Source of the DNA: a virus | Taxonomy: Duplodnaviria > Caudoviricetes | Direction: 5' to 3' (one strand) | Length of the DNA stretch: 64,000 nucleotides | IMG/VR virus record: IMGVR_UViG_3300033121_001118 | Location: 40-64,039 of that record | Part shown: positions 1 through 64,000 of the stretch, one piece after another | How positions within the stretch are numbered: the stretch's first letter is position 1 | How the letters are laid out: each line of letters opens with the position of its first letter | Notes under the pieces: model-generated | What the model was told of the DNA's origin: nothing | What the model saw: the letters and a program-made list of their open reading frames with translations, nothing else | Databases searched by the model: none | Made by a program: the position numbers and the translations under genes

Positions 1-53
1 GCCGATTCAAGCGGCGGCAACGTCGGCATCATGATGGCGCCCGATTCGCAGTT
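1..53. repeat. Terminal direct repeat (copy 1), circular-assembly overlap
   Basis: Identical to 63948-64000 (GCCGATTCAAGCGGCGGC...TTCGCAGTT); reading frame is continuous across the join. Confidence 0.95.
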
Positions 54-5944: not shown

Positions 5945-6463
5945 ATGGTACCAGAGAAGTTCAACTACGCAACACGGTGGGTCATTCGTCGCTACGCCAA
6001 CGACGAGGCCTTCCTTAACGACACCCCTTCCGAGGTCGTGTCACCCGATGGCGAGATTCTCCCCGCAGAGACCGTCGTCGATGGCAACCTCCTTCTCAAC
6101 GAAGGGATTCAGCTGCTCGAGGATCTGTTGATCGGTGCTGGCGGCACGGCGTACAACAACGCCAACTCGTACCTCGGGGTCGGTGATTCGACCACGGCGG
6201 AGAGTGCTGCACATACCGGTCTTCAAGCCGCGACCAATAAGACCTACAAGGCGATGCAGGCCACATACCCCTCCCGGAGTAGCCAGACCATCACTTGGCG
6301 TGCGGTGTTCGCTTCCGGCGATGCCAACTACGCCTGGCAGGAGTTCACGATCGTCAACGCCTCGTCCGACACTGGCACGAACCTGAACCGGAAGGTCAGT
6401 GCTCAGGGGACGAAGGCGTCCGGTCAGACGTGGACCCTCGACATGACCTTGACGATTAGCTAG
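5945..6463 (+). CDS. Phage structural (baseplate/collar-like) protein
   Basis: YLGVGDSTTA...WQEFTIVN...LNRKV pattern typical of fibre-associated proteins. Confidence 0.65.
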   Translation: MVPEKFNYATRWVIRRYANDEAFLNDTPSEVVSPDGEILPAETVVDGNLLLNEGIQLLEDLLIGAGGTAYNNANSYLGVGDSTTAESAAHTGLQAATNKTYKAMQATYPSRSSQTITWRAVFASGDANYAWQEFTIVNASSDTGTNLNRKVSAQGTKASGQTWTLDMTLTIS

Positions 6464-6464
6464 T

Positions 6465-6776
6465 ATGATCAAGGTCAACGAGGGGACGACCGCATACGTC
6501 ACGTTCACGTTTCGGGACAAATCGGGGGCCCCAGAAGCCCCCGAGGCGATCCAGTACTGGATTGACGACGTCTCTTCGGGCCGGCGTGTACGCGAGTCAA
6601 CAGCCATCGACACTGGGTCATCGGTCGAGGTCAAGCTGACGACAACGGACACGCAGATCTTGAACACGTCGTCGGTGTCAGAAGAGAGACGAATCACTGT
6701 TCGCGGCACGTACGGGGAAGCCGACGCTGTCGTGGGGGAAGCGTTCTACGAGGTCGTGAATCTAGCGGGAGTGTAG
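6465..6776 (+). CDS. BppU-like/Ig-fold baseplate-associated protein
   Basis: Beta-rich 103 aa protein, tight coupling to neighbours. Confidence 0.5.
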   Translation: MIKVNEGTTAYVTFTFRDKSGAPEAPEAIQYWIDDVSSGRRVRESTAIDTGSSVEVKLTTTDTQILNTSSVSEERRITVRGTYGEADAVVGEAFYEVVNLAGV

Positions 6777-6781
6777 TTAGC

Positions 6782-7423
6782 ATGAGGGTCCTGGTCATCG
6801 CTCCCGACCAGCCCGGCATCGATACGTTGCCTGAAATCCGGTCTATTCAGCGACGTCATCACATGTCAATACTGGGAGGGATAGTCAAGCCGCAGGACAT
6901 CTACGATGCATGCAGGGACACGAGATTCGACGTTCACCACTACGCCACACACTCCGGGCCAACGGGCGCTCTCCTCTCCGACGGAGTCTTGTTCACCGAA
7001 GAGGACATCGCTCAAGTCGCACGGATCAAAGGGACAGAGACTCTGTTCTTCAACTCCTGCGACTCAGGTCGACTCGCTAGCTATGCAGTACGTCACGGCG
7101 CTCGGTTCGCGATTCACACGAACGTCGACTTGGCAGAAAGTGACGCTTGGAAGCCGGCTCTGTCGTTCTACAGCTACTTGGAGAACGGTCATAGCCGCGA
7201 CATCGTCGGTGCCTTCGTAGTCGCCGATAACGGCGACGGCGACTACGGGCTTCAGATCTCGCCGCCTTACGTACAAGAACTCCAGAGGCAGTCGGAGGTT
7301 GCTATCCTCCCCCGACCTGGGACTGTGGTCATCTCTCGGGTACAGATGGTCTTGGTCGGACTTGGCATCCTCGCAGCTTCGGGACTATGGACAGCCTTTC
7401 TCAACATGCTGTCCGGGAGGTAA
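6782..7423 (+). CDS. CHAT (caspase-like) domain protein with C-terminal transmembrane helix
   Basis: HHYATHSG...LLSDG and LFFNSCDSG match the CHAT His-Cys dyad motifs; hydrophobic C-terminus MVLVGLGILAASGLWTAFL. Confidence 0.75.
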   Translation: MRVLVIAPDQPGIDTLPEIRSIQRRHHMSILGGIVKPQDIYDACRDTRFDVHHYATHSGPTGALLSDGVLFTEEDIAQVARIKGTETLFFNSCDSGRLASYAVRHGARFAIHTNVDLAESDAWKPALSFYSYLENGHSRDIVGAFVVADNGDGDYGLQISPPYVQELQRQSEVAILPRPGTVVISRVQMVLVGLGILAASGLWTAFLNMLSGR

Positions 7424-7425
7424 AG

Positions 7426-7758
7426 ATGCATGTCGGGATTCTCGCCCAAGAATCTACGACGATCGCGAGTACACTTTCTCTTGTCTTCAGTGTCTTGCTG
7501 CTGTATACGTTCTGGATCGGGTTTCGTGGTCAGTACTTGCTGTGGATGTCTCTCGGCTTCTTCGGCTTGGCGCTGTACTTCGGTCTCCTGACCATCAGCA
7601 GCGGACCGCAACCCCTCATCAGTCGAGGGGAGATCGCTCGGGCCGTGAGGGAAGTGTTGATCGTTTCGTACCTTCTTCTAGCAGTCGGGTTCGTTCGAGT
7701 CGGACGTCGTCTGTGGCGTTGGACAGGCAGCAACGCCTGCGACCACAAGACGAAGTAG
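7426..7758 (+). CDS. Membrane protein with ~3 TM helices (holin-like candidate)
   Basis: Three hydrophobic segments, basic C-terminal tail; last gene before terminator. Confidence 0.65.
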   Translation: MHVGILAQESTTIASTLSLVFSVLLLYTFWIGFRGQYLLWMSLGFFGLALYFGLLTISSGPQPLISRGEIARAVREVLIVSYLLLAVGFVRVGRRLWRWTGSNACDHKTK

Positions 7759-7764
7759 ACAAAG

Positions 7765-7793
7765 GAAGACGGCGCCTACGCAGCGCCGTCTTC
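7765..7793. terminator. Hairpin between convergent operons
   Basis: GAAGACGGCGC-CTACGCA-GCGCCGTCTTC, perfect 11-bp stem. Confidence 0.8.
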
Positions 7794-32089: not shown

Positions 32090-32152
32090 CCTCTTAAGTA
32101 TAGCGTACCAAGATAAACCCCCAATTAAGGGAAGATTAGAGGACGATTAGAG
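32090..32152 (-). promoter_or_regulatory. Phased-repeat promoter, copy 13
   Basis: -10 TATACT (32097-32102); units at 32112, 32123, 32134, 32145. Confidence 0.8.
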
Positions 32153-32772
32153 TTCCCGAGAAGACGTGAACGATGTGAGCGGAAGGAGCGAGCTGTCAAT
32201 CTGACTCGCTCGCGGATGAAGGCTACGGGGTGATCGGTCGCGAAGGGAGCGAAATGAGGCTTCTGTCGCGTCTTGATGATCCGGCGACGTCCGATGGGTG
32301 CGCCATCCATCAGCCAGTGCACTATATCGGGCACGCACCAGCCTAAGAAGAATGCGCTGAAATACGCAGAGGCAAAGAGCTCCTTGAAGACATCAGTAAG
32401 ATGGATGGTTGATAGCCACAGTCCTCTGGACCACAGCCAAGAATACGCAGTTGCGTACAAGATCGCGATGAACGTCCCGAGAAAAGGCAGGTGGGAGAGC
32501 TTCGATCGATGCGGGAGGATGAGCGCGAGGGGGAACCAGAAGACGAGGAAGATGATCTCGATCAACCAGCCGATAAGCGGGATGGTCGAGAGAAAGAACG
32601 ACGGGTAGGTCTTGCGTTCGATGTCCCTGACATCAGGTGTCACGACCCAGCCGACAACACTCCCGACCGTGAAAGCGATCGCGTAGTCAGGCTGAAGGTA
32701 GTAGAAGGCAAGCGGGGCTGCGATTGCAGTCGCAGCCACCGAAGCCTTGAAGTGCGTAGAGCCGTCGGACAT
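32125..32772 (-). CDS. DUF2227-like metal-binding multi-pass membrane protein
   Basis: GSTH, PDVRD, HRSKLSH, HWLMD motifs with TM helices. Confidence 0.7.
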   Translation of the reverse strand: MSDGSTHFKASVAATAIAAPLAFYYLQPDYAIAFTVGSVVGWVVTPDVRDIERKTYPSFFLSTIPLIGWLIEIIFLVFWFPLALILPHRSKLSHLPFLGTFIAILYATAYSWLWSRGLWLSTIHLTDVFKELFASAYFSAFFLGWCVPDIVHWLMDGAPIGRRRIIKTRQKPHFAPFATDHPVAFIRERVRLTARSFRSHRSRLLGNSNRPLIFP

Positions 32773-32773
32773 T

Positions 32774-33229
32774 CTAGAACCGGAGCACCGAGTCGCCTGG
32801 CTTGGGGAGCTCGATGGGCGTGCCTACGATCGCTGCAGGAGGTTGCAGAGCAGTCGTCTGGGTCTGCTCGGGTAGGGCGTTGTTCGAGGACCAACCGCCG
32901 CCACGACGGCCAGCACCGAGACGGACGTTGTCCGTGTAGGCATCGACGATGTCCTGCTGCATGAACACCTTCGCTGAGGACTCGGTCGCACGAAGAGCGA
33001 TGTCCGCTCCACCGCGAATCAACAGGAAGATGACGCCGACGACTGTGAGGAGGCCGCAGAAGATGAGAGAGATCTGGACGCCGCCCTCGCCGAAGGCGAA
33101 GTAGACTGTCAAGCCGACCACGACGAAAGCCAAGAGTCCCATCGACACGAAAGGGACGATCTTCTCCGGCAAGCTCTTCTGCGATACGAGCGGTTCGAAC
33201 TCGAACTCAGACTGCTTCTTCCGACCCAT
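32774..33229 (-). CDS. Two-TM membrane protein
   Basis: Two hydrophobic segments; coupled to FtsK-like gene. Confidence 0.7.
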   Translation of the reverse strand: MGRKKQSEFEFEPLVSQKSLPEKIVPFVSMGLLAFVVVGLTVYFAFGEGGVQISLIFCGLLTVVGVIFLLIRGGADIALRATESSAKVFMQQDIVDAYTDNVRLGAGRRGGGWSSNNALPEQTQTTALQPPAAIVGTPIELPKPGDSVLRF

Positions 33230-42887: not shown

Positions 42888-43163
42888 GTGCTAGTGTACG
42901 ATTCGTCCATCCAACAACCCGAGAAGCAGTCTCTGCCGGCCTCCCTGCCTAGGAAGGTCGTCGGTGCCGTGACCCAAAACACGACATGGGTTTTCGGGAT
43001 CTCCTTGCTGTTGATCATCGTGGGAGTGTTCGTACTGGCATGGTTCGAACGACCTATTCCCGAGCTGATCAGCGTCTTCGGCGGCGCCATCATTACTGCC
43101 CTCAGTCGGGTCTTCGAGCCGAACAACACCTCGGGAACGTCCGGAGGCGGCAATGCCAATTAA
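42888..43163 (+). CDS. Two-TM membrane protein (holin-like candidate)
   Basis: WVFGISLLLIIVGVFVLAW and LISVFGGAIITAL; first gene of late operon. Confidence 0.55.
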   Translation: MLVYDSSIQQPEKQSLPASLPRKVVGAVTQNTTWVFGISLLLIIVGVFVLAWFERPIPELISVFGGAIITALSRVFEPNNTSGTSGGGNAN

Positions 43164-43680
43164 GAAGATGAGCCCCCGCGTTCGGACGTTCATCGAGACG
43201 TATCTCGCTACATGGAACGCTACAGAGGCCGCCCGGGCTGCTCACTACAAGAACCCCGGGATCATCGGTGCTCGTTACCTGCAAGAACCCATCGTCAAGG
43301 CAGCGGTCGAGGCTCGACTGTCTGAACTGGCGATGTCTGCCAACGAGGTCGTGTTGAGGCTCACTCAGCAAGGTCGAGCTTCGGTCGAGGACTTCGTCAG
43401 CTTCACGGACGCCCAGGGGAATCCGGTCGCCCCGTACATCGATCTAGATCGTGCTCGCCGGGAAGGCAAGCTACATCTGCTTCGTCGTATCAAGTTCGGC
43501 CCCCAGGTGGAGATCGAGCTTCACGACTCTCAAGCAGCTTTGACTCAGCTCGGTCGTGTCCACAGTCTCTTCACGGACAAGTCCGAGATCTCGGGAGTCG
43601 GTGGCGAAGCTCTCCAAGTCCACATCTACATCCCTGACAACGGACGCGGGACGGATTCCGGTGACGACAAAGTCGATTAG
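43153..43680 (+). CDS. terS: Terminase small subunit
   Basis: FIETYLATWNATEAARAAHY HTH pattern; ELHDSQAAL..LGR. Confidence 0.88.
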   Translation: MPIKKMSPRVRTFIETYLATWNATEAARAAHYKNPGIIGARYLQEPIVKAAVEARLSELAMSANEVVLRLTQQGRASVEDFVSFTDAQGNPVAPYIDLDRARREGKLHLLRRIKFGPQVEIELHDSQAALTQLGRVHSLFTDKSEISGVGGEALQVHIYIPDNGRGTDSGDDKVD

Positions 43681-45034
43681 ACCCCAGCGGGGTCCCCAAG
43701 AACAGTTTCTCGCCACTCCGGCAGACATCGCCTTCTACGGCGGTGCAGCTGGTGGCGGGAAGACTTGGGCCTTGCTTCTGGAGCCTCTCCGACACAAGGA
43801 CGTCCCGGGCTTCGCCTGCGTGATCTTTCGCCGGACGTACCCTCAGGTCACGAACCCGGGAGGACTCTGGGACGAGTCGGTAGCGGTCTACTCGCTTATC
43901 GGCGGTGTCCCTCGTCAGTCCGACTTGCTCTGGAAGTTCCCGTCTAACGCGGTGATCAGGTTCGCCCATCTCCAGCACGAGCAGAATCGCCTCGACTGGC
44001 AGGGCTCGCAGATCCCGCTGATCTGCTTTGACGAGCTGACACACTTCACGAGAGGGCAGTTCTTCTACATGCTCTCACGTAACAGGTCGCTCTGCGGTGT
44101 CCGTCCGTACATCCGGGGGACGTGCAACCCCGTGACGGACGATGACGAGACAGGTGGCTGGATCCACGACTTCGTCAGCTGGTATCTCGACGAGGACGGG
44201 TACGCCATCCCAGAGAGGTCGGGCGTGATTCGATGGTTCGTGAACCTGTCAGGCAAGCTCGACTGGGCTGATTCGAGGGAAGAGCTCCTCGAACGATACA
44301 GCGACATGACCGACCCGCCGATCCCGATGAGCTTCACGTTCATCCGGAGCTCGGTCTACGACAATCAGATCTTGCTGAAGGAGAACCCGAGCTACCTCGC
44401 GAACCTCAAGGCTCTCGATCCAGTCGATCAAGGTCGTCTGCTCGGGGGCAACTGGCACGTGAGGCCCGAGGCGGGGAAGGTGTTCAATCGGTCGTGGTTC
44501 GAGATCGTGGATGCAGTGCCTGCCGGTGGTCGAGAGATTCGCTTCTGGGACTTCGCAGCGACCGAGAAGCAGGTAGCAGGCGACGACCCCGACTTCACAG
44601 CCGGTGTCAAGATGAAGCGGGTAGGCGATATCTACTACGTGATGGACGCCATCTCGGAACGGATGGACCCAGCACGAACGAACAAGACGATCGAGAACAC
44701 AGCGTCTCAGGACGGCATCCAGACCGCTATCCGTTTCGAGCGGGAAGGCGGTGCCTCCGGCGTACGTGACAGCAGAGCGATCGTCTCATTACTGACCGGC
44801 TACGACGTCCGAGGCTTGATCCCGCAAGGCGACAAGGTCATGAGAGCGAAAGGTCTCTCGGCCCAAGCCTACGCCGGGAACGTGAAGCTACTCCGAGGCC
44901 CGTGGAATAGACGCTACTTACAGACGCTCCACGACTTCCCGGACGGTGCACACGACGACGAAGTAGACGCCTCTAGTGGGGCGTTCAACGAGCTAGCTAA
45001 AGAGGTTCGTGAGAACCGAAGTCAACGAGGATAG
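43661..45034 (+). CDS. terL: Terminase large subunit
   Basis: YGGAAGGGKT Walker A, FDELTHF, TCNP, WDFAAT..DFTAG, HDDEVDA; GTG start at 43661. Confidence 0.95.
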   Translation: MTTKSIRPQRGPQEQFLATPADIAFYGGAAGGGKTWALLLEPLRHKDVPGFACVIFRRTYPQVTNPGGLWDESVAVYSLIGGVPRQSDLLWKFPSNAVIRFAHLQHEQNRLDWQGSQIPLICFDELTHFTRGQFFYMLSRNRSLCGVRPYIRGTCNPVTDDDETGGWIHDFVSWYLDEDGYAIPERSGVIRWFVNLSGKLDWADSREELLERYSDMTDPPIPMSFTFIRSSVYDNQILLKENPSYLANLKALDPVDQGRLLGGNWHVRPEAGKVFNRSWFEIVDAVPAGGREIRFWDFAATEKQVAGDDPDFTAGVKMKRVGDIYYVMDAISERMDPARTNKTIENTASQDGIQTAIRFEREGGASGVRDSRAIVSLLTGYDVRGLIPQGDKVMRAKGLSAQAYAGNVKLLRGPWNRRYLQTLHDFPDGAHDDEVDASSGAFNELAKEVRENRSQRG

Positions 45035-51486: not shown

Positions 51487-51972
51487 ATGAAGACAAGCAC
51501 ATCCAAGATCGCCATCCTCGCCTTGACCGTAGCATTCCTGATGGTCGTGGGCGTAATGGCGATCTCGTTCAGCACGGCCCAGGCCGACATTCCCGGGCCC
51601 TTGGCAGCTCCGACTCCCGTCAGCGTCAACCCTGGCTCGGGCGCAGGCCAGACCGCCGTCCTCTGGACGTCGAAGGTCATCACGCAGGACACCGCGACGG
51701 GCTCGATGAGCGTCCAGAACTACGGCAAGGCCGACATCCAGTACTTGGTCGATCAGACGATCGTCAACGCCGCAGCCAACACGACCACGGTAAAGCTTCA
51801 GTTCTCGAACGACGGGACTAACTGGGTGGACGGGATCAACCTCGTCGCTTCGAACATCGCCGATGGCGGGGACATGAACCAGTTCGCCGTCTTCGGCTCG
51901 AAGATGCGTCTGTACGCGGACGTCAGCAACACCAACCCGGTCACTTGGACGCTGAGCGTCGCCGCTAAGTAG
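51487..51972 (+). CDS. Putative decoration protein with signal-peptide-like N-terminus
   Basis: MKTSTSK + hydrophobic core + AQA; KLQFSNDGTNW..RLY jelly-roll-like pattern. Confidence 0.65.
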   Translation: MKTSTSKIAILALTVAFLMVVGVMAISFSTAQADIPGPLAAPTPVSVNPGSGAGQTAVLWTSKVITQDTATGSMSVQNYGKADIQYLVDQTIVNAAANTTTVKLQFSNDGTNWVDGINLVASNIADGGDMNQFAVFGSKMRLYADVSNTNPVTWTLSVAAK

Positions 51973-61309: not shown

Positions 61310-63309
61310 CGAGCTTCTACATCCAGGTCTATACGCCGACAGGGACGACTTCGAGGGTAGCCGTTCCCATCCCGTCCGTCTTGAAGGTCGAGCCTCGGGG
61401 CTGGTCGGCTGTTGCCGAGGGAGGGATGTGGGATGCCGAAGTCATCTTGACGGGCCCTCTCCCGGAGCTACTAGGCTTGACATCTTGGTTGGGACACCAG
61501 ATCGAGATCTTCAACGATCGGGGGACGATGGTCTGGTGGGGAGACATCGATACAGTCGAGGTCGTCGAGCGGGGACTCCGACGAGGCATCGACCTCTCCC
61601 GGACGTCGAACCGCATCAGCGTTCGATACTCCCAGAAGCAGGCCGGCGGGAACGTCATCTCCGCGGACACGACTTGGCTCGACGACACTCTCAGCCAAGC
61701 CCTCTACGGGGTTCGAGAGAAGCGATTGACGCCCCAAGGGCCGATGAGTTCGAATGAAGCGACTGCATATCGAGCTTCAGAGCTGGCCCGACGAGCTTGG
61801 CCATCGTACACTCTCGGGATCGACTCGTCCTCGTTGATGGTTCGTCTCTATTGTCGAGGGTACTATCAAGAGGCCAAGCGACGGTACTACACCAATCTTG
61901 CAGGCTTGGAAGACCACGTAGTCGTGAGTTCGACCCCGTACCCTCTCGGACTGGGAGTGGTTGCGAATACGTCCATAGCCTTTGCTCGTCGGTGTTCGGC
62001 TATCGCTCAGCTCAACGGCTACTTCAAGAACTTCAGCACGGGCTACAAGTTTCGAGTCACCGGTGCTGGAGCCTCGAACAACCAGACCTATCAAGTCGTG
62101 GGAGCTGACGAGAGGGACGCTGTAACGTATACGTCGACTGGAGTGACGTTCTCCCCCAACGACGACATGGTCGATGCCAATGGCGGTCTCGGCTTCATCG
62201 AGACGAACGACATGTTTCAGATCACAGGGTCGGCCAGCAATAACGGCACTTGGATCATGGACAAGCCCGGAGCTGTAGCGATCGAGATGAACGGGACGTT
62301 CCACGGGTCTCTCGTAGCTTCGGAAAGCCCGGGAGCGACCGTTCAGTACTATCGAGGCAATCAAGTTCGCATCACGCCCGTCCCAGGGGCGAACGAAGTG
62401 GCCGGGAACACGATAACGGCGACCGTCTGGGGACAGCGCTACTACCAGACGTTCACACTCTCGGCCAACACGACCTGGACGGTCGACACAATCGAGATCC
62501 AACTCCAGACGATCGGGGGGCCGACTGATGGTGTGAAGATCGATCTCTACTCGGACTCGAGTGGCTCCCCGGGGTCCCTCTTGAAGACGTCGACAGTGTC
62601 AGCTTCGAGCATCCCCACCGCTCTCGGCTGGGTCTCGTTCGATTTCGACAATGCTCAACAGCTCACGTACGGGACGACCTACGGTCTAGTCATCTCCCGA
62701 ACAGGGGCTAACGATTGGGACGACTACTACATGGTCGGGATGGACCTCTACGGCCAATACTCAGAGGGGAGTTGCAAGGCGTACGACGGGACAGCTTATC
62801 AAGCAATCGGTGCCGACCTTATCTTTCGAGTTGCAGGAGGCGTCGATACTGGGTCCCAGATAGCGTCGATGCTTCAATCTCTTAACGGCTTCGTCAACGT
62901 CCAAACGATCGCATCGGGCGTTGTCTCAAATCAGTATCGTGAAGGAGAGCTGATCGTCTTCGACGAGCTCCAAGTTCTCCTTCGGGCGGGCACCAGTGCG
63001 GGGTCACGAATGATAGCCCGAACGACACGGGACAAGTCGATCTTGATCGCTGTGAAGCCTGACAAGTCAACAGTTCGATGGTCGTTGCAAGGACCGAACG
63101 CGTTGTACGATCTTCACGGGCAGTTGGCCGAGCCCGGTCTCTTGCCTGCAGGCGAGTGGGTGAAGCTCGGAGATGCTTCCGATCTTGGCCCTTGGGCTGC
63201 GTTGTCTCCCGTCTTCGTTGAACGTGCAGAGTTCAGTCCCGGACGAGGTTGGACTCTCACGCCCGAGAACACGGACGACCTTTTCGACACAGGAGCGTCA
63301 CAAGGATGA
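61306..63309 (+). CDS. Tail tip/hub protein
   Basis: WWGDID, DTLSQALYGVREK; ATGA overlap; start corrected. Confidence 0.75.
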   Translation: MTSFYIQVYTPTGTTSRVAVPIPSVLKVEPRGWSAVAEGGMWDAEVILTGPLPELLGLTSWLGHQIEIFNDRGTMVWWGDIDTVEVVERGLRRGIDLSRTSNRISVRYSQKQAGGNVISADTTWLDDTLSQALYGVREKRLTPQGPMSSNEATAYRASELARRAWPSYTLGIDSSSLMVRLYCRGYYQEAKRRYYTNLAGLEDHVVVSSTPYPLGLGVVANTSIAFARRCSAIAQLNGYFKNFSTGYKFRVTGAGASNNQTYQVVGADERDAVTYTSTGVTFSPNDDMVDANGGLGFIETNDMFQITGSASNNGTWIMDKPGAVAIEMNGTFHGSLVASESPGATVQYYRGNQVRITPVPGANEVAGNTITATVWGQRYYQTFTLSANTTWTVDTIEIQLQTIGGPTDGVKIDLYSDSSGSPGSLLKTSTVSASSIPTALGWVSFDFDNAQQLTYGTTYGLVISRTGANDWDDYYMVGMDLYGQYSEGSCKAYDGTAYQAIGADLIFRVAGGVDTGSQIASMLQSLNGFVNVQTIASGVVSNQYREGELIVFDELQVLLRAGTSAGSRMIARTTRDKSILIAVKPDKSTVRWSLQGPNALYDLHGQLAEPGLLPAGEWVKLGDASDLGPWAALSPVFVERAEFSPGRGWTLTPENTDDLFDTGASQG

Positions 63310-64000
63310 CCGACACCATCACATCCCTCGCCCAACAGATTCGTCCCTTCTGGTTGAGGGATCTCGGGGCGTCTTCCCCGTTGCAGAATGGGGGCGGATC
63401 GGGCATGATCGCCCACGCGTTGAACGGGCCCTACCATACGGGGACGCTCGACCAATCTCAAGCTCCGTGGGCTGTCGATACGACGACCTTCACAGCCCAC
63501 ACGGGCAACCCGGATGCTCACCACACGAAGCTCCACGGGATCGTCGATACTGCTCATCACAGTGGCGCTGGTGGGCTTCAGTATCAGATCGTCGGCTTCC
63601 CGACCAATGGTGGGCTCGGGCTACTGACTCCTGCTTCGTCTCCCGGCGCGAATGCCATCGTCAAGACGGACGGGGCTAGCTCGGTCACGCTGGTCGACCT
63701 CACCGTCACGTCGGATCTCTTCATCGTAGGTGTTGCCGACTTCGGGACGAACACGATCTACGAGGACGCTAGCTACCTTCAAGTGACGGGAAGCAAGACA
63801 GTTCGATTCGGACAAGCCGTCGGCACGCCGAACTGGCAGATTGCTCTGAACGGCTCAGCCCAGTTTCACGGGACGGTAGACATCTCGAACGGTGGAGACC
63901 TGACCGTTGCCGGGAGTGGGAGTTACGCAGGGAATCAGGTGCTGTTCGCCGATTCAAGCGGCGGCAACGTCGGCATCATGATGGCGCCCGATTCGCAGTT
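63306..64000 (+). CDS. Tail fibre N-terminal part (continues at position 1)
   Basis: ATG overlaps upstream TGA; open frame MTDTITSLAQQIRPFW...FADSSGGNVGIMMAPDSQ through window end. Confidence 0.85.
   Translation, partial: MTDTITSLAQQIRPFWLRDLGASSPLQNGGGSGMIAHALNGPYHTGTLDQSQAPWAVDTTTFTAHTGNPDAHHTKLHGIVDTAHHSGAGGLQYQIVGFPTNGGLGLLTPASSPGANAIVKTDGASSVTLVDLTVTSDLFIVGVADFGTNTIYEDASYLQVTGSKTVRFGQAVGTPNWQIALNGSAQFHGTVDISNGGDLTVAGSGSYAGNQVLFADSSGGNVGIMMAPDSQ
63948..64000. repeat. Terminal direct repeat (copy 2)
   Basis: Identical to 1-53. Confidence 0.95.

Follow-up and report, generated by a model that had tools for sequence, protein, structure and literature searches.

A membrane-anchored mini-CHAT protease paired with a holin-like protein: a candidate lysis module in tailed phages without a detectable endolysin

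A holin together with a wall-degrading endolysin is the assumed exit route of nearly all tailed phages, and in one survey 97.4% of classified double-stranded DNA phages had a detectable lytic protein (PMC12596118). Can proteolysis instead drive or time phage lysis? The question is raised by positions 6782-7758 of a 64,000-nucleotide (nt) stretch of viral DNA (IMG/VR record IMGVR_UViG_3300033121_001118, positions 40 to 64,039; this whole stretch is hereafter called the window), where a conserved mobile cassette puts a caspase-fold protease in the place of the endolysin, in complete genomes without a detectable lysin. The cassette is a pair of genes, one for a small CHAT protease with a membrane anchor and one for a three-helix membrane protein. 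We propose, as a tentative reading with a little less than an even chance of being right, that the pair serves late in infection as a lysis module, in which a holin-like protein acts together with a CHAT protease tethered to the membrane on its cytoplasmic side. The features of the locus, in window coordinates, are:

6782..7423, + strand: gene of a tail-anchored mini-CHAT (caspase-fold) cysteine protease, 213 amino acids (aa); from translation, model and profile
6950..6952, + strand: codon of the predicted catalytic His57 (ATHSG); from conservation, alignment to 8tl0 and model
7058..7060, + strand: codon of the predicted catalytic Cys93 (FNSCDSG); from conservation, alignment to 8tl0 and model
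7337..7411, + strand: C-terminal transmembrane anchor of the protease, residues ~186-210, with 3 residues after it; from model and hydrophobicity
7415..7420, + strand: Shine-Dalgarno sequence GGGAGG of the partner gene, within the last protease codons; read from the sequence
7426..7758, + strand: gene of a three-helix membrane protein, 110 aa, with a basic C-terminal tail (holin-like partner); from alignments and model
7765..7793, no strand: 12-bp GC-rich, terminator-like hairpin between the convergent late (+) and early (-) operons; from a consensus scan and reading of the sequence

A first-pass annotation, made from the sequence alone, had read the first gene product as a CHAT protease from its His and Cys motifs (HYATHSG at residues 53-59 and FNSCDSG at residues 90-96 of the 213-aa translation of 6782-7423), and both the predicted fold and the conserved His/Cys pair bear this out. 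The AlphaFold model, built on 46 homologues, has a mean predicted local distance difference test score (pLDDT) of 89, and in it His57 directly follows strand 51-54 and Cys93 directly follows strand 87-90. The top Foldseek match was the SAVED-CHAT protease 8tl0 (E 3e-9), with Craspase TPR-CHAT, the CHAT anti-sigma factor DdvA, gingipain, C11 proteases and caspases among the lower matches. Re-aligned to 8tl0, the model gave Z 16.4 and a root-mean-square deviation of 2.7 Å over 155 residues at 20% identity; the Z scores were 12.8-13.2 for DdvA (8rot/8rw5) and 10-11.7 for Craspase, gingipain, separase, legumain and caspases. The same relationship was recovered at the sequence level by a profile of 113 family members, which matched the CHAT domain of PDB entry 8tl0 (E 2e-14) with the family H-x-x-x-H-G lined up with its HFIGHG, and N-S-C with its NAC. 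Pfam matches of the window protease itself were weak, with 13.8 bits for CHAT (PF12770; E 0.04, below the 24-bit gathering threshold) and E 0.086 for Peptidase_C25. The CHAT copies in the records G002-G004 scored 23-28 bits against PF12770 and nine distant relatives scored 30-42 bits, above the Pfam threshold; most close homologues carry a precomputed PF12770 match. No lysin family of Pfam or PHROGs matched the protease at E ≤ 1, and in place of the muralytic catalytic domain of an endolysin it has a CHAT fold.

The His and Cys residues, which were expected to persist in homologues if the assignment was right, are indeed kept. Cys93 is invariant in the 113-sequence alignment (A5), in which His57, His53 and Asn91 are each conserved in at least 90% of members; the Cys is present in 145 of 147 distant relatives, and His57 in 139 of 145 distant and 38 of 45 close ones. 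As judged from sequence and model, the window protein is probably a real minimal CHAT protease of a phage-specific sub-family, and probably an active one.

This family appears to be undescribed. The homologue search returned 46 close family clusters, and an exhaustive profile-free search found 241 distant ones at E ≤ 0.001, nearly all of 200-250 aa. The closest ESM Atlas clusters are named CHAT and consist to 75-95% of Viruses/Uroviricota, from which we take the family to be viral. No relatives were found among isolated phages by tblastn with three family members; 185,579 species genomes yielded no prophage copy and only a distant cellular CHAT in a metagenome-assembled genome of Chloroflexia; scans of viral contigs for distant members, with single proteins and with an alignment of the long forms described below, gave no match. 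In the literature, no paper was found on tail-anchored or lysis-associated phage CHAT proteins, nor on such a pair. What emerges is a large viral sub-family of minimal CHAT proteases, with about 240 clusters at 50% identity, mostly of 200-250 aa and for the most part tail-anchored. To our knowledge, these would be the smallest natural versions of the CHAT catalytic domain, and they could reveal how CHAT proteases are activated without sensor domains.

The C-terminal transmembrane helix noted in the first pass is present in the AlphaFold model (residues 186-210), and of 150 distant relatives, 124 likewise have a hydrophobic helix at the C-terminus, beyond which the median length is five residues. 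No signal peptide was found in the protease or in these relatives. Across 169 members, the mean net charge is +1.2 in the 12 residues before the anchor versus +0.4 after it. Some relatives are longer (P0140, P0141, P0153, P0155, P0166 and P0180; 350-450 aa) and consist of the CHAT domain, the transmembrane helix and a low-complexity, Pro/Thr-rich tail of about 200 aa, which mostly ends in a Cys-containing motif and in which no Pfam domain was detected. This extension looks like an extracytoplasmic stalk, which might span the wall, or it may act as a sensor. Because of the missing signal peptide, the flanking charges and the Pro/Thr-rich tails that follow the helix in the long forms, the catalytic domain is predicted to face the cytoplasm. 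A releasable anchor of the signal-anchor-release (SAR) type was also considered. In SAR endolysins the weakly hydrophobic helix is N-terminal, whereas the sole hydrophobic helix of the protease is C-terminal; in the close sub-family the anchor is only moderately hydrophobic (~38% Gly/Ala/Ser/Thr), and the idea was dropped as the helix is strongly hydrophobic family-wide (mean Kyte-Doolittle value 2.3).

As for the second gene, the first pass had seen a protein of about three transmembrane segments followed by a terminator, which is confirmed with one correction. The start had been placed at 7387, whereas the relatives begin at the position equivalent to 7426, an ATG 3 nt past the protease stop, so that the product has 110 rather than 123 aa. 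In relatives, the partner starts 0-9 nt after the protease stop, and, read from the sequence, with the ribosome-binding site inside the protease gene, the two genes appear to be translationally coupled. The AlphaFold model of the partner (pLDDT 81.5) has three helices (3-31, 36-58 and 67-104); the N-terminus is short, helices 2 and 3 are joined by a conserved loop LLAxSAGPAP...R..I (alignments A7 and A11), and a basic C-terminal tail follows a conserved LxR. A profile search found homologues in 64 clusters of ~100-115 aa, all metagenomic and all unnamed; two of them (P0250 and P0256, typical members) carry a precomputed match to PF23778 (Phage_holin_2). In the ESM Atlas, the partner matched only unnamed clusters, below 0.9. 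The protein has the general features of a holin, being small, multi-helical, charged at its C-terminal tail and encoded beside an enzyme gene, and "holin-like" is used here as a reasoned description rather than as demonstrated membership. Its 110 aa form three transmembrane helices in a bundle, which is not a gasdermin fold.

The window is nearly all of a single 64,039-bp viral contig, and the earlier statement that the genome is complete agrees with the CheckV rating of 100%, with ends that form no clean circular overlap. An exact repeat of 77 nt lies near both ends, at window positions 1-53 and 63924-64000 (bases 16-92 and the final 77 of the contig), and shares the frame of a tail-fibre open reading frame (ORF) that runs off both of them; the 15 nt preceding the repeat differ mostly at synonymous sites (AGSGS versus AGSGA). 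The repeat would be explained either by a circular genome whose assembly spanned strain variants or by repetition of a fibre domain, and the genome is probably whole. From about 42.1 kb, a rightward late operon carries the terminase, portal, capsid, tail tube, tape measure and tail-fibre genes, wraps to the window start and ends at 7758, with the pair as its last two genes. A leftward block at 7802-39284 contains replication and 7-deazaguanine DNA-modification genes. Spacing between genes is 1-5 nt from 5945 to 7758, and the pair can therefore be assigned to the late (tail-fibre) transcription unit; a consensus scan found no promoter-like site directly upstream of it. In temperate siphophages, the lysis genes classically lie where the pair does, at the close of the tail-fibre operon and ahead of the strand switch.

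The arrangement is not confined to the window. Among 28 distinct contigs with room downstream of the protease gene (six viral and 22 further metagenomic), 24 have an ORF of 101-122 aa with two or three predicted helices within a few nt of the protease stop, and these partner proteins are homologous to one another. Where context exists, the pair closes a tail-fibre operon and a strand switch follows. CheckV likewise gives a completeness of 100% for two other genomes with the pair, G001 (52 kb, with terminal repeats) and G003 (64 kb). Pfam identifies an integrase-family ORF in each (Phage_integrase in the G001 record, where a tyrosine-recombinase-like ORF stands a few genes beyond the pair). Identity of the pair to that of the window is 67% in G001 and 51% in G003. 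Beyond it, the window and G001 share the terminase (49%) and two upstream genes, and the window and G003 a few tail genes (27-39%). Since the three complete genomes share the pair but almost nothing else, we regard it as a mobile module, and it is better conserved than the virion genes around it. In all three unrelated backbones it ends the tail-fibre operon, so the lysis position claimed in the first pass held up. The two shared upstream genes are:

5945..6776, + strand: two small genes of the tail-fibre module, immediately upstream of the pair (172 aa, phrog_23653; 103 aa); PHROGs E 9e-55

By tblastn, they accompany the pair in G001 (40% and 50% identity) and have no match in G003.

No endolysin had been recognised in the window before, and none of the searches brought one to light. 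Pfam found no muralytic or wall-binding family in 85 window ORFs (E ≤ 0.01), and PHROGs found no lysin in 34. Thirteen lysin and peptidoglycan-binding families were searched in six frames in the window and four related records (PF00959, PF01464, PF01510, PF01520, PF13539, PF08291, PF05838, PF00182, PF01183, PF05257, PF00877, PF01551 and PF01471), and none was found. Full Pfam searches of 51 mid-size ORFs of G001 and 62 of G003 returned no lysin, nor did PDB sequence searches of four unannotated ORFs. One SH3_3 match in G003 (61874-62986; L048:1874-2986) was looked at as a lysin and rejected, the protein of this temperate phage being a secreted nuclease with a signal peptide and SH3_3, staphylococcal-nuclease and lamin-tail domains. 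Three unrelated complete genomes with the pair, none of them with a detectable lysin, are a pattern and not a single gap.

How might such a pair work? The protease would be made late, together with the tail fibres, and accumulate at the membrane beside its holin-like partner. When the partner gathers and permeabilises the membrane, the proteases might be brought together and activated by proximity, like other caspase-fold enzymes, and would then cut membrane-proximal targets. One possible target is the basic cytoplasmic tail of the partner itself, whose cleavage would set the timing of lysis; another is host proteins with a role in wall maintenance or in holding back autolysins, whose cleavage would execute lysis. 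Lysis would thus depend on the pair and not on a classical phage muramidase, amidase or endopeptidase. As read from sequences and predicted structures, a function in lysis is for us a possibility of nearly even weight.

Several observations weigh against it. A protease that faces the cytoplasm has no obvious means of breaking the cell wall. The window partner matched no holin family at E ≤ 1 or in the six-frame search, and its best named matches in BFVD, actinophage holins, are not significant (E 0.16-0.5). There is also another holin candidate, a 91-aa protein with one or two hydrophobic helices (42888-43163), whose gene heads the late operon just ahead of the small terminase gene. About half of the window ORFs have no Pfam or PHROG match, and an unrecognised endolysin may be among the unannotated ones; the six-frame search was of low sensitivity and overlooked the CHAT genes of the window and G001, whose scores lie under the Pfam threshold. 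Contig context is confined to the close sub-family (at least 45% identity). Finally, Asp replaces His57 (ATDSG) in six of the 45 close relatives, with Cys93 retained, and these homologues may be inactive or use another base. The Asp57 relatives displayed in alignment A4 (P0008, P0010, P0014 and P0018) have His-His at positions 52-53.

If a lysin is indeed hidden elsewhere, as the many unannotated ORFs would allow, the pair could be a module for counter-defence, host takeover or superinfection exclusion, an explanation that we find rather unlikely; a signalling or counter-defence protease had been the alternative offered in the first pass. The tethered protease would cut host proteins on the cytoplasmic side of the membrane, for instance immune effectors located there, sensors of abortive infection or components for DNA entry, and the three-helix protein would be an anchor, regulator or co-effector of the protease. 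The top structural matches (SAVED-CHAT, Craspase and DdvA) speak for it, as the characterised bacterial CHATs act in immunity or signalling, and so does the movement of the pair among unrelated backbones in the manner of a host-specific accessory module, next to the tail-fibre genes that determine host range. Yet no PADLOC defence model matches. The pair is closely tied into the late operon, with no separate promoter; genes for counter-defence and exclusion are usually early or expressed from the prophage. The lack of a detectable lysin in three unrelated complete genomes would also have to be accounted for. If true, this explanation would reveal a new kind of membrane-targeted anti-immune protease. 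Improbable to a much greater degree is a role in the virion or its assembly, in which the pair would mature or assemble the tail fibres, or be delivered with the tail tip, and play no part in exit. In favour of this, it invariably closes the tail-fibre operon, and in G001 it travels with the two small upstream tail-module genes; in G003, though, it stands beside different ones, no PHROG structural family matches it, and integral membrane proteins of one and three helices make poor soluble virion parts.

The first-pass annotation itself had favoured a protease that attacks a proteinaceous envelope (S-layer) of a host poor in peptidoglycan or lacking it. In this explanation, which we now hold to be very unlikely, the protease would be the exit enzyme, reaching the S-layer or the peptide links of the wall through a holin lesion or by export. 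An enzyme gene beside a holin-like gene in the lysis slot, the only moderately hydrophobic anchor of the close sub-family and the lack of a muralytic or peptidoglycan-binding domain anywhere searched, tail proteins included, would agree with it. So would the large terminase (43556-45034), which is 50% identical to that of the archaeal Methanoculleus viruses L4768/Blf4, since the envelope of Methanoculleus is an S-layer only. But the same terminase is ~51% identical to that of Rhizobium phages, and nothing else is common to the window phage and a Methanoculleus virus. The capsid protein is nearest to Acutalibacter and Arthrobacter phages, and no close isolate was found; by sequence, the ancestry of the phage looks strongly mosaic. 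The window encodes a DnaG-type primase, a family A polymerase, FtsK and the queuosine-precursor (7-deazaguanine) proteins QueC and QueF. Two related phages with the same pair encode sigma-70/extracytoplasmic-function-type factors, DnaA-like and ParB proteins, and their hosts are therefore taken to be bacteria. On this bacterial gene content, and with only the terminase in common, an archaeal host was rejected, and a host poor in peptidoglycan found no support; a loose link to phages of Gram-positive bacteria is suggested by the capsid and by the weak holin similarities. The main argument against attack on an S-layer is the predicted topology, the domain having no signal peptide and being placed in the cytoplasm by the charges and the long-form tails. 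Moreover, we know of no clan CD enzyme that cuts peptidoglycan.

Some further observations were made elsewhere in these genomes. The early region of the window (8357-39895, minus strand) contains 16 promoter sites of a common design, with three TAATC repeats at 11-bp phase, followed by TTTATC, TTGnnCCG, a TATAAT-like box and then TAAGAGG; the ribosome site AGAGGAGA lies about 30 nt beyond TAAGAGG, and ribosome sites read AGGAG. By its sequence, this promoter looks like a bacterial -10 box with an activator site in place of the -35 box, which adds to the bacterial features of the genome. Also in the early region, at 32125-33229 on the minus strand, a DUF2227-like multi-pass membrane protein (of a predicted metal-binding hydrolase family) adjoins a two-helix membrane protein. 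In the late operon, right after the major capsid gene, 51487-51972 encodes a 161-aa protein that matches no family and has an N-terminal signal-like hydrophobic helix with a cleavage-like AQA-D. No tRNA and no Rfam family were found in the window. G001 has Peptidase_C26, a class-I glutamine amidotransferase and Amidoligase_2 together (loci L042-L044), a set known from predicted phage peptide-ligase systems.

Compared with characterised CHAT proteins, the phage protease is the catalytic core with little else. SAVED-CHAT (8tl0, of type III CRISPR signalling) and TPR-CHAT (Csx29 of Craspase) have the same fold and the same order of His and Cys, with HG after one strand and NxC after the next. They are, however, soluble proteins of 480-720 aa that act in cellular immunity and carry sensor domains (SAVED, TPR), whereas the phage protein, with 213 aa, is a bare catalytic domain with an anchor and a small membrane partner. 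The transmembrane anti-sigma factor DdvA (8rot/8rw5) likewise has its CHAT domain on a single-pass membrane protein. DdvA is cellular, has about 900 aa and bears the domain C-terminal to the membrane helix, whereas that of the phage protease is N-terminal to the helix and predicted to be cytoplasmic.

With the canonical lysis cassettes, such as lambda S/R and the lysin A-holin cassettes of actinophages, the pair has in common an enzyme gene coupled to that of a multi-helix, basic-tailed protein of about 100 aa, as well as a late position after the tail fibres and exchange as a module. It differs from them in an enzyme that lies outside the known peptidoglycan hydrolase families and is anchored at its C-terminus, with a predicted orientation towards the cytoplasm. 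SAR endolysins with pinholins (phage 21, P1 Lyz) offer a parallel in that a helix keeps the lytic enzyme tethered to the membrane as long as the holin has not acted; there, the SAR domain is N-terminal and the muralytic domain periplasmic, whereas the phage CHAT protein is a protease with a C-terminal anchor hydrophobic enough to be stable. Cysteine peptidases as exit enzymes in the place of glycosidases and amidases are represented by PeiW and PeiP, the pseudomurein endoisopeptidases of methanogen viruses. These differ from CHAT in fold and are soluble with wall-binding repeats, and the hosts of the phage CHAT pair appear to be bacterial.

Closest in logic are the bacterial operons of a gasdermin and a caspase-like protease, in which a caspase-fold protease is likewise encoded beside a membrane-permeabilising protein and is proposed to license pore formation. 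The phage pair differs in its 110-aa integral membrane partner, which takes the place of a soluble gasdermin, and in its location in a late operon rather than a defence island, with no PADLOC match. In its broadest form, our proposal would be that tailed phages with three or more unrelated types of genome burst their bacterial hosts without a peptidoglycan hydrolase of their own, by means of a portable two-gene cassette in which a tethered caspase-type protease and a holin-like protein act jointly, the protease licensing or executing the lethal step. We regard this generalisation as doubtful; if true, viruses would have in this cassette a counterpart to gasdermin systems, with their logic of a protease that leads to a pore.

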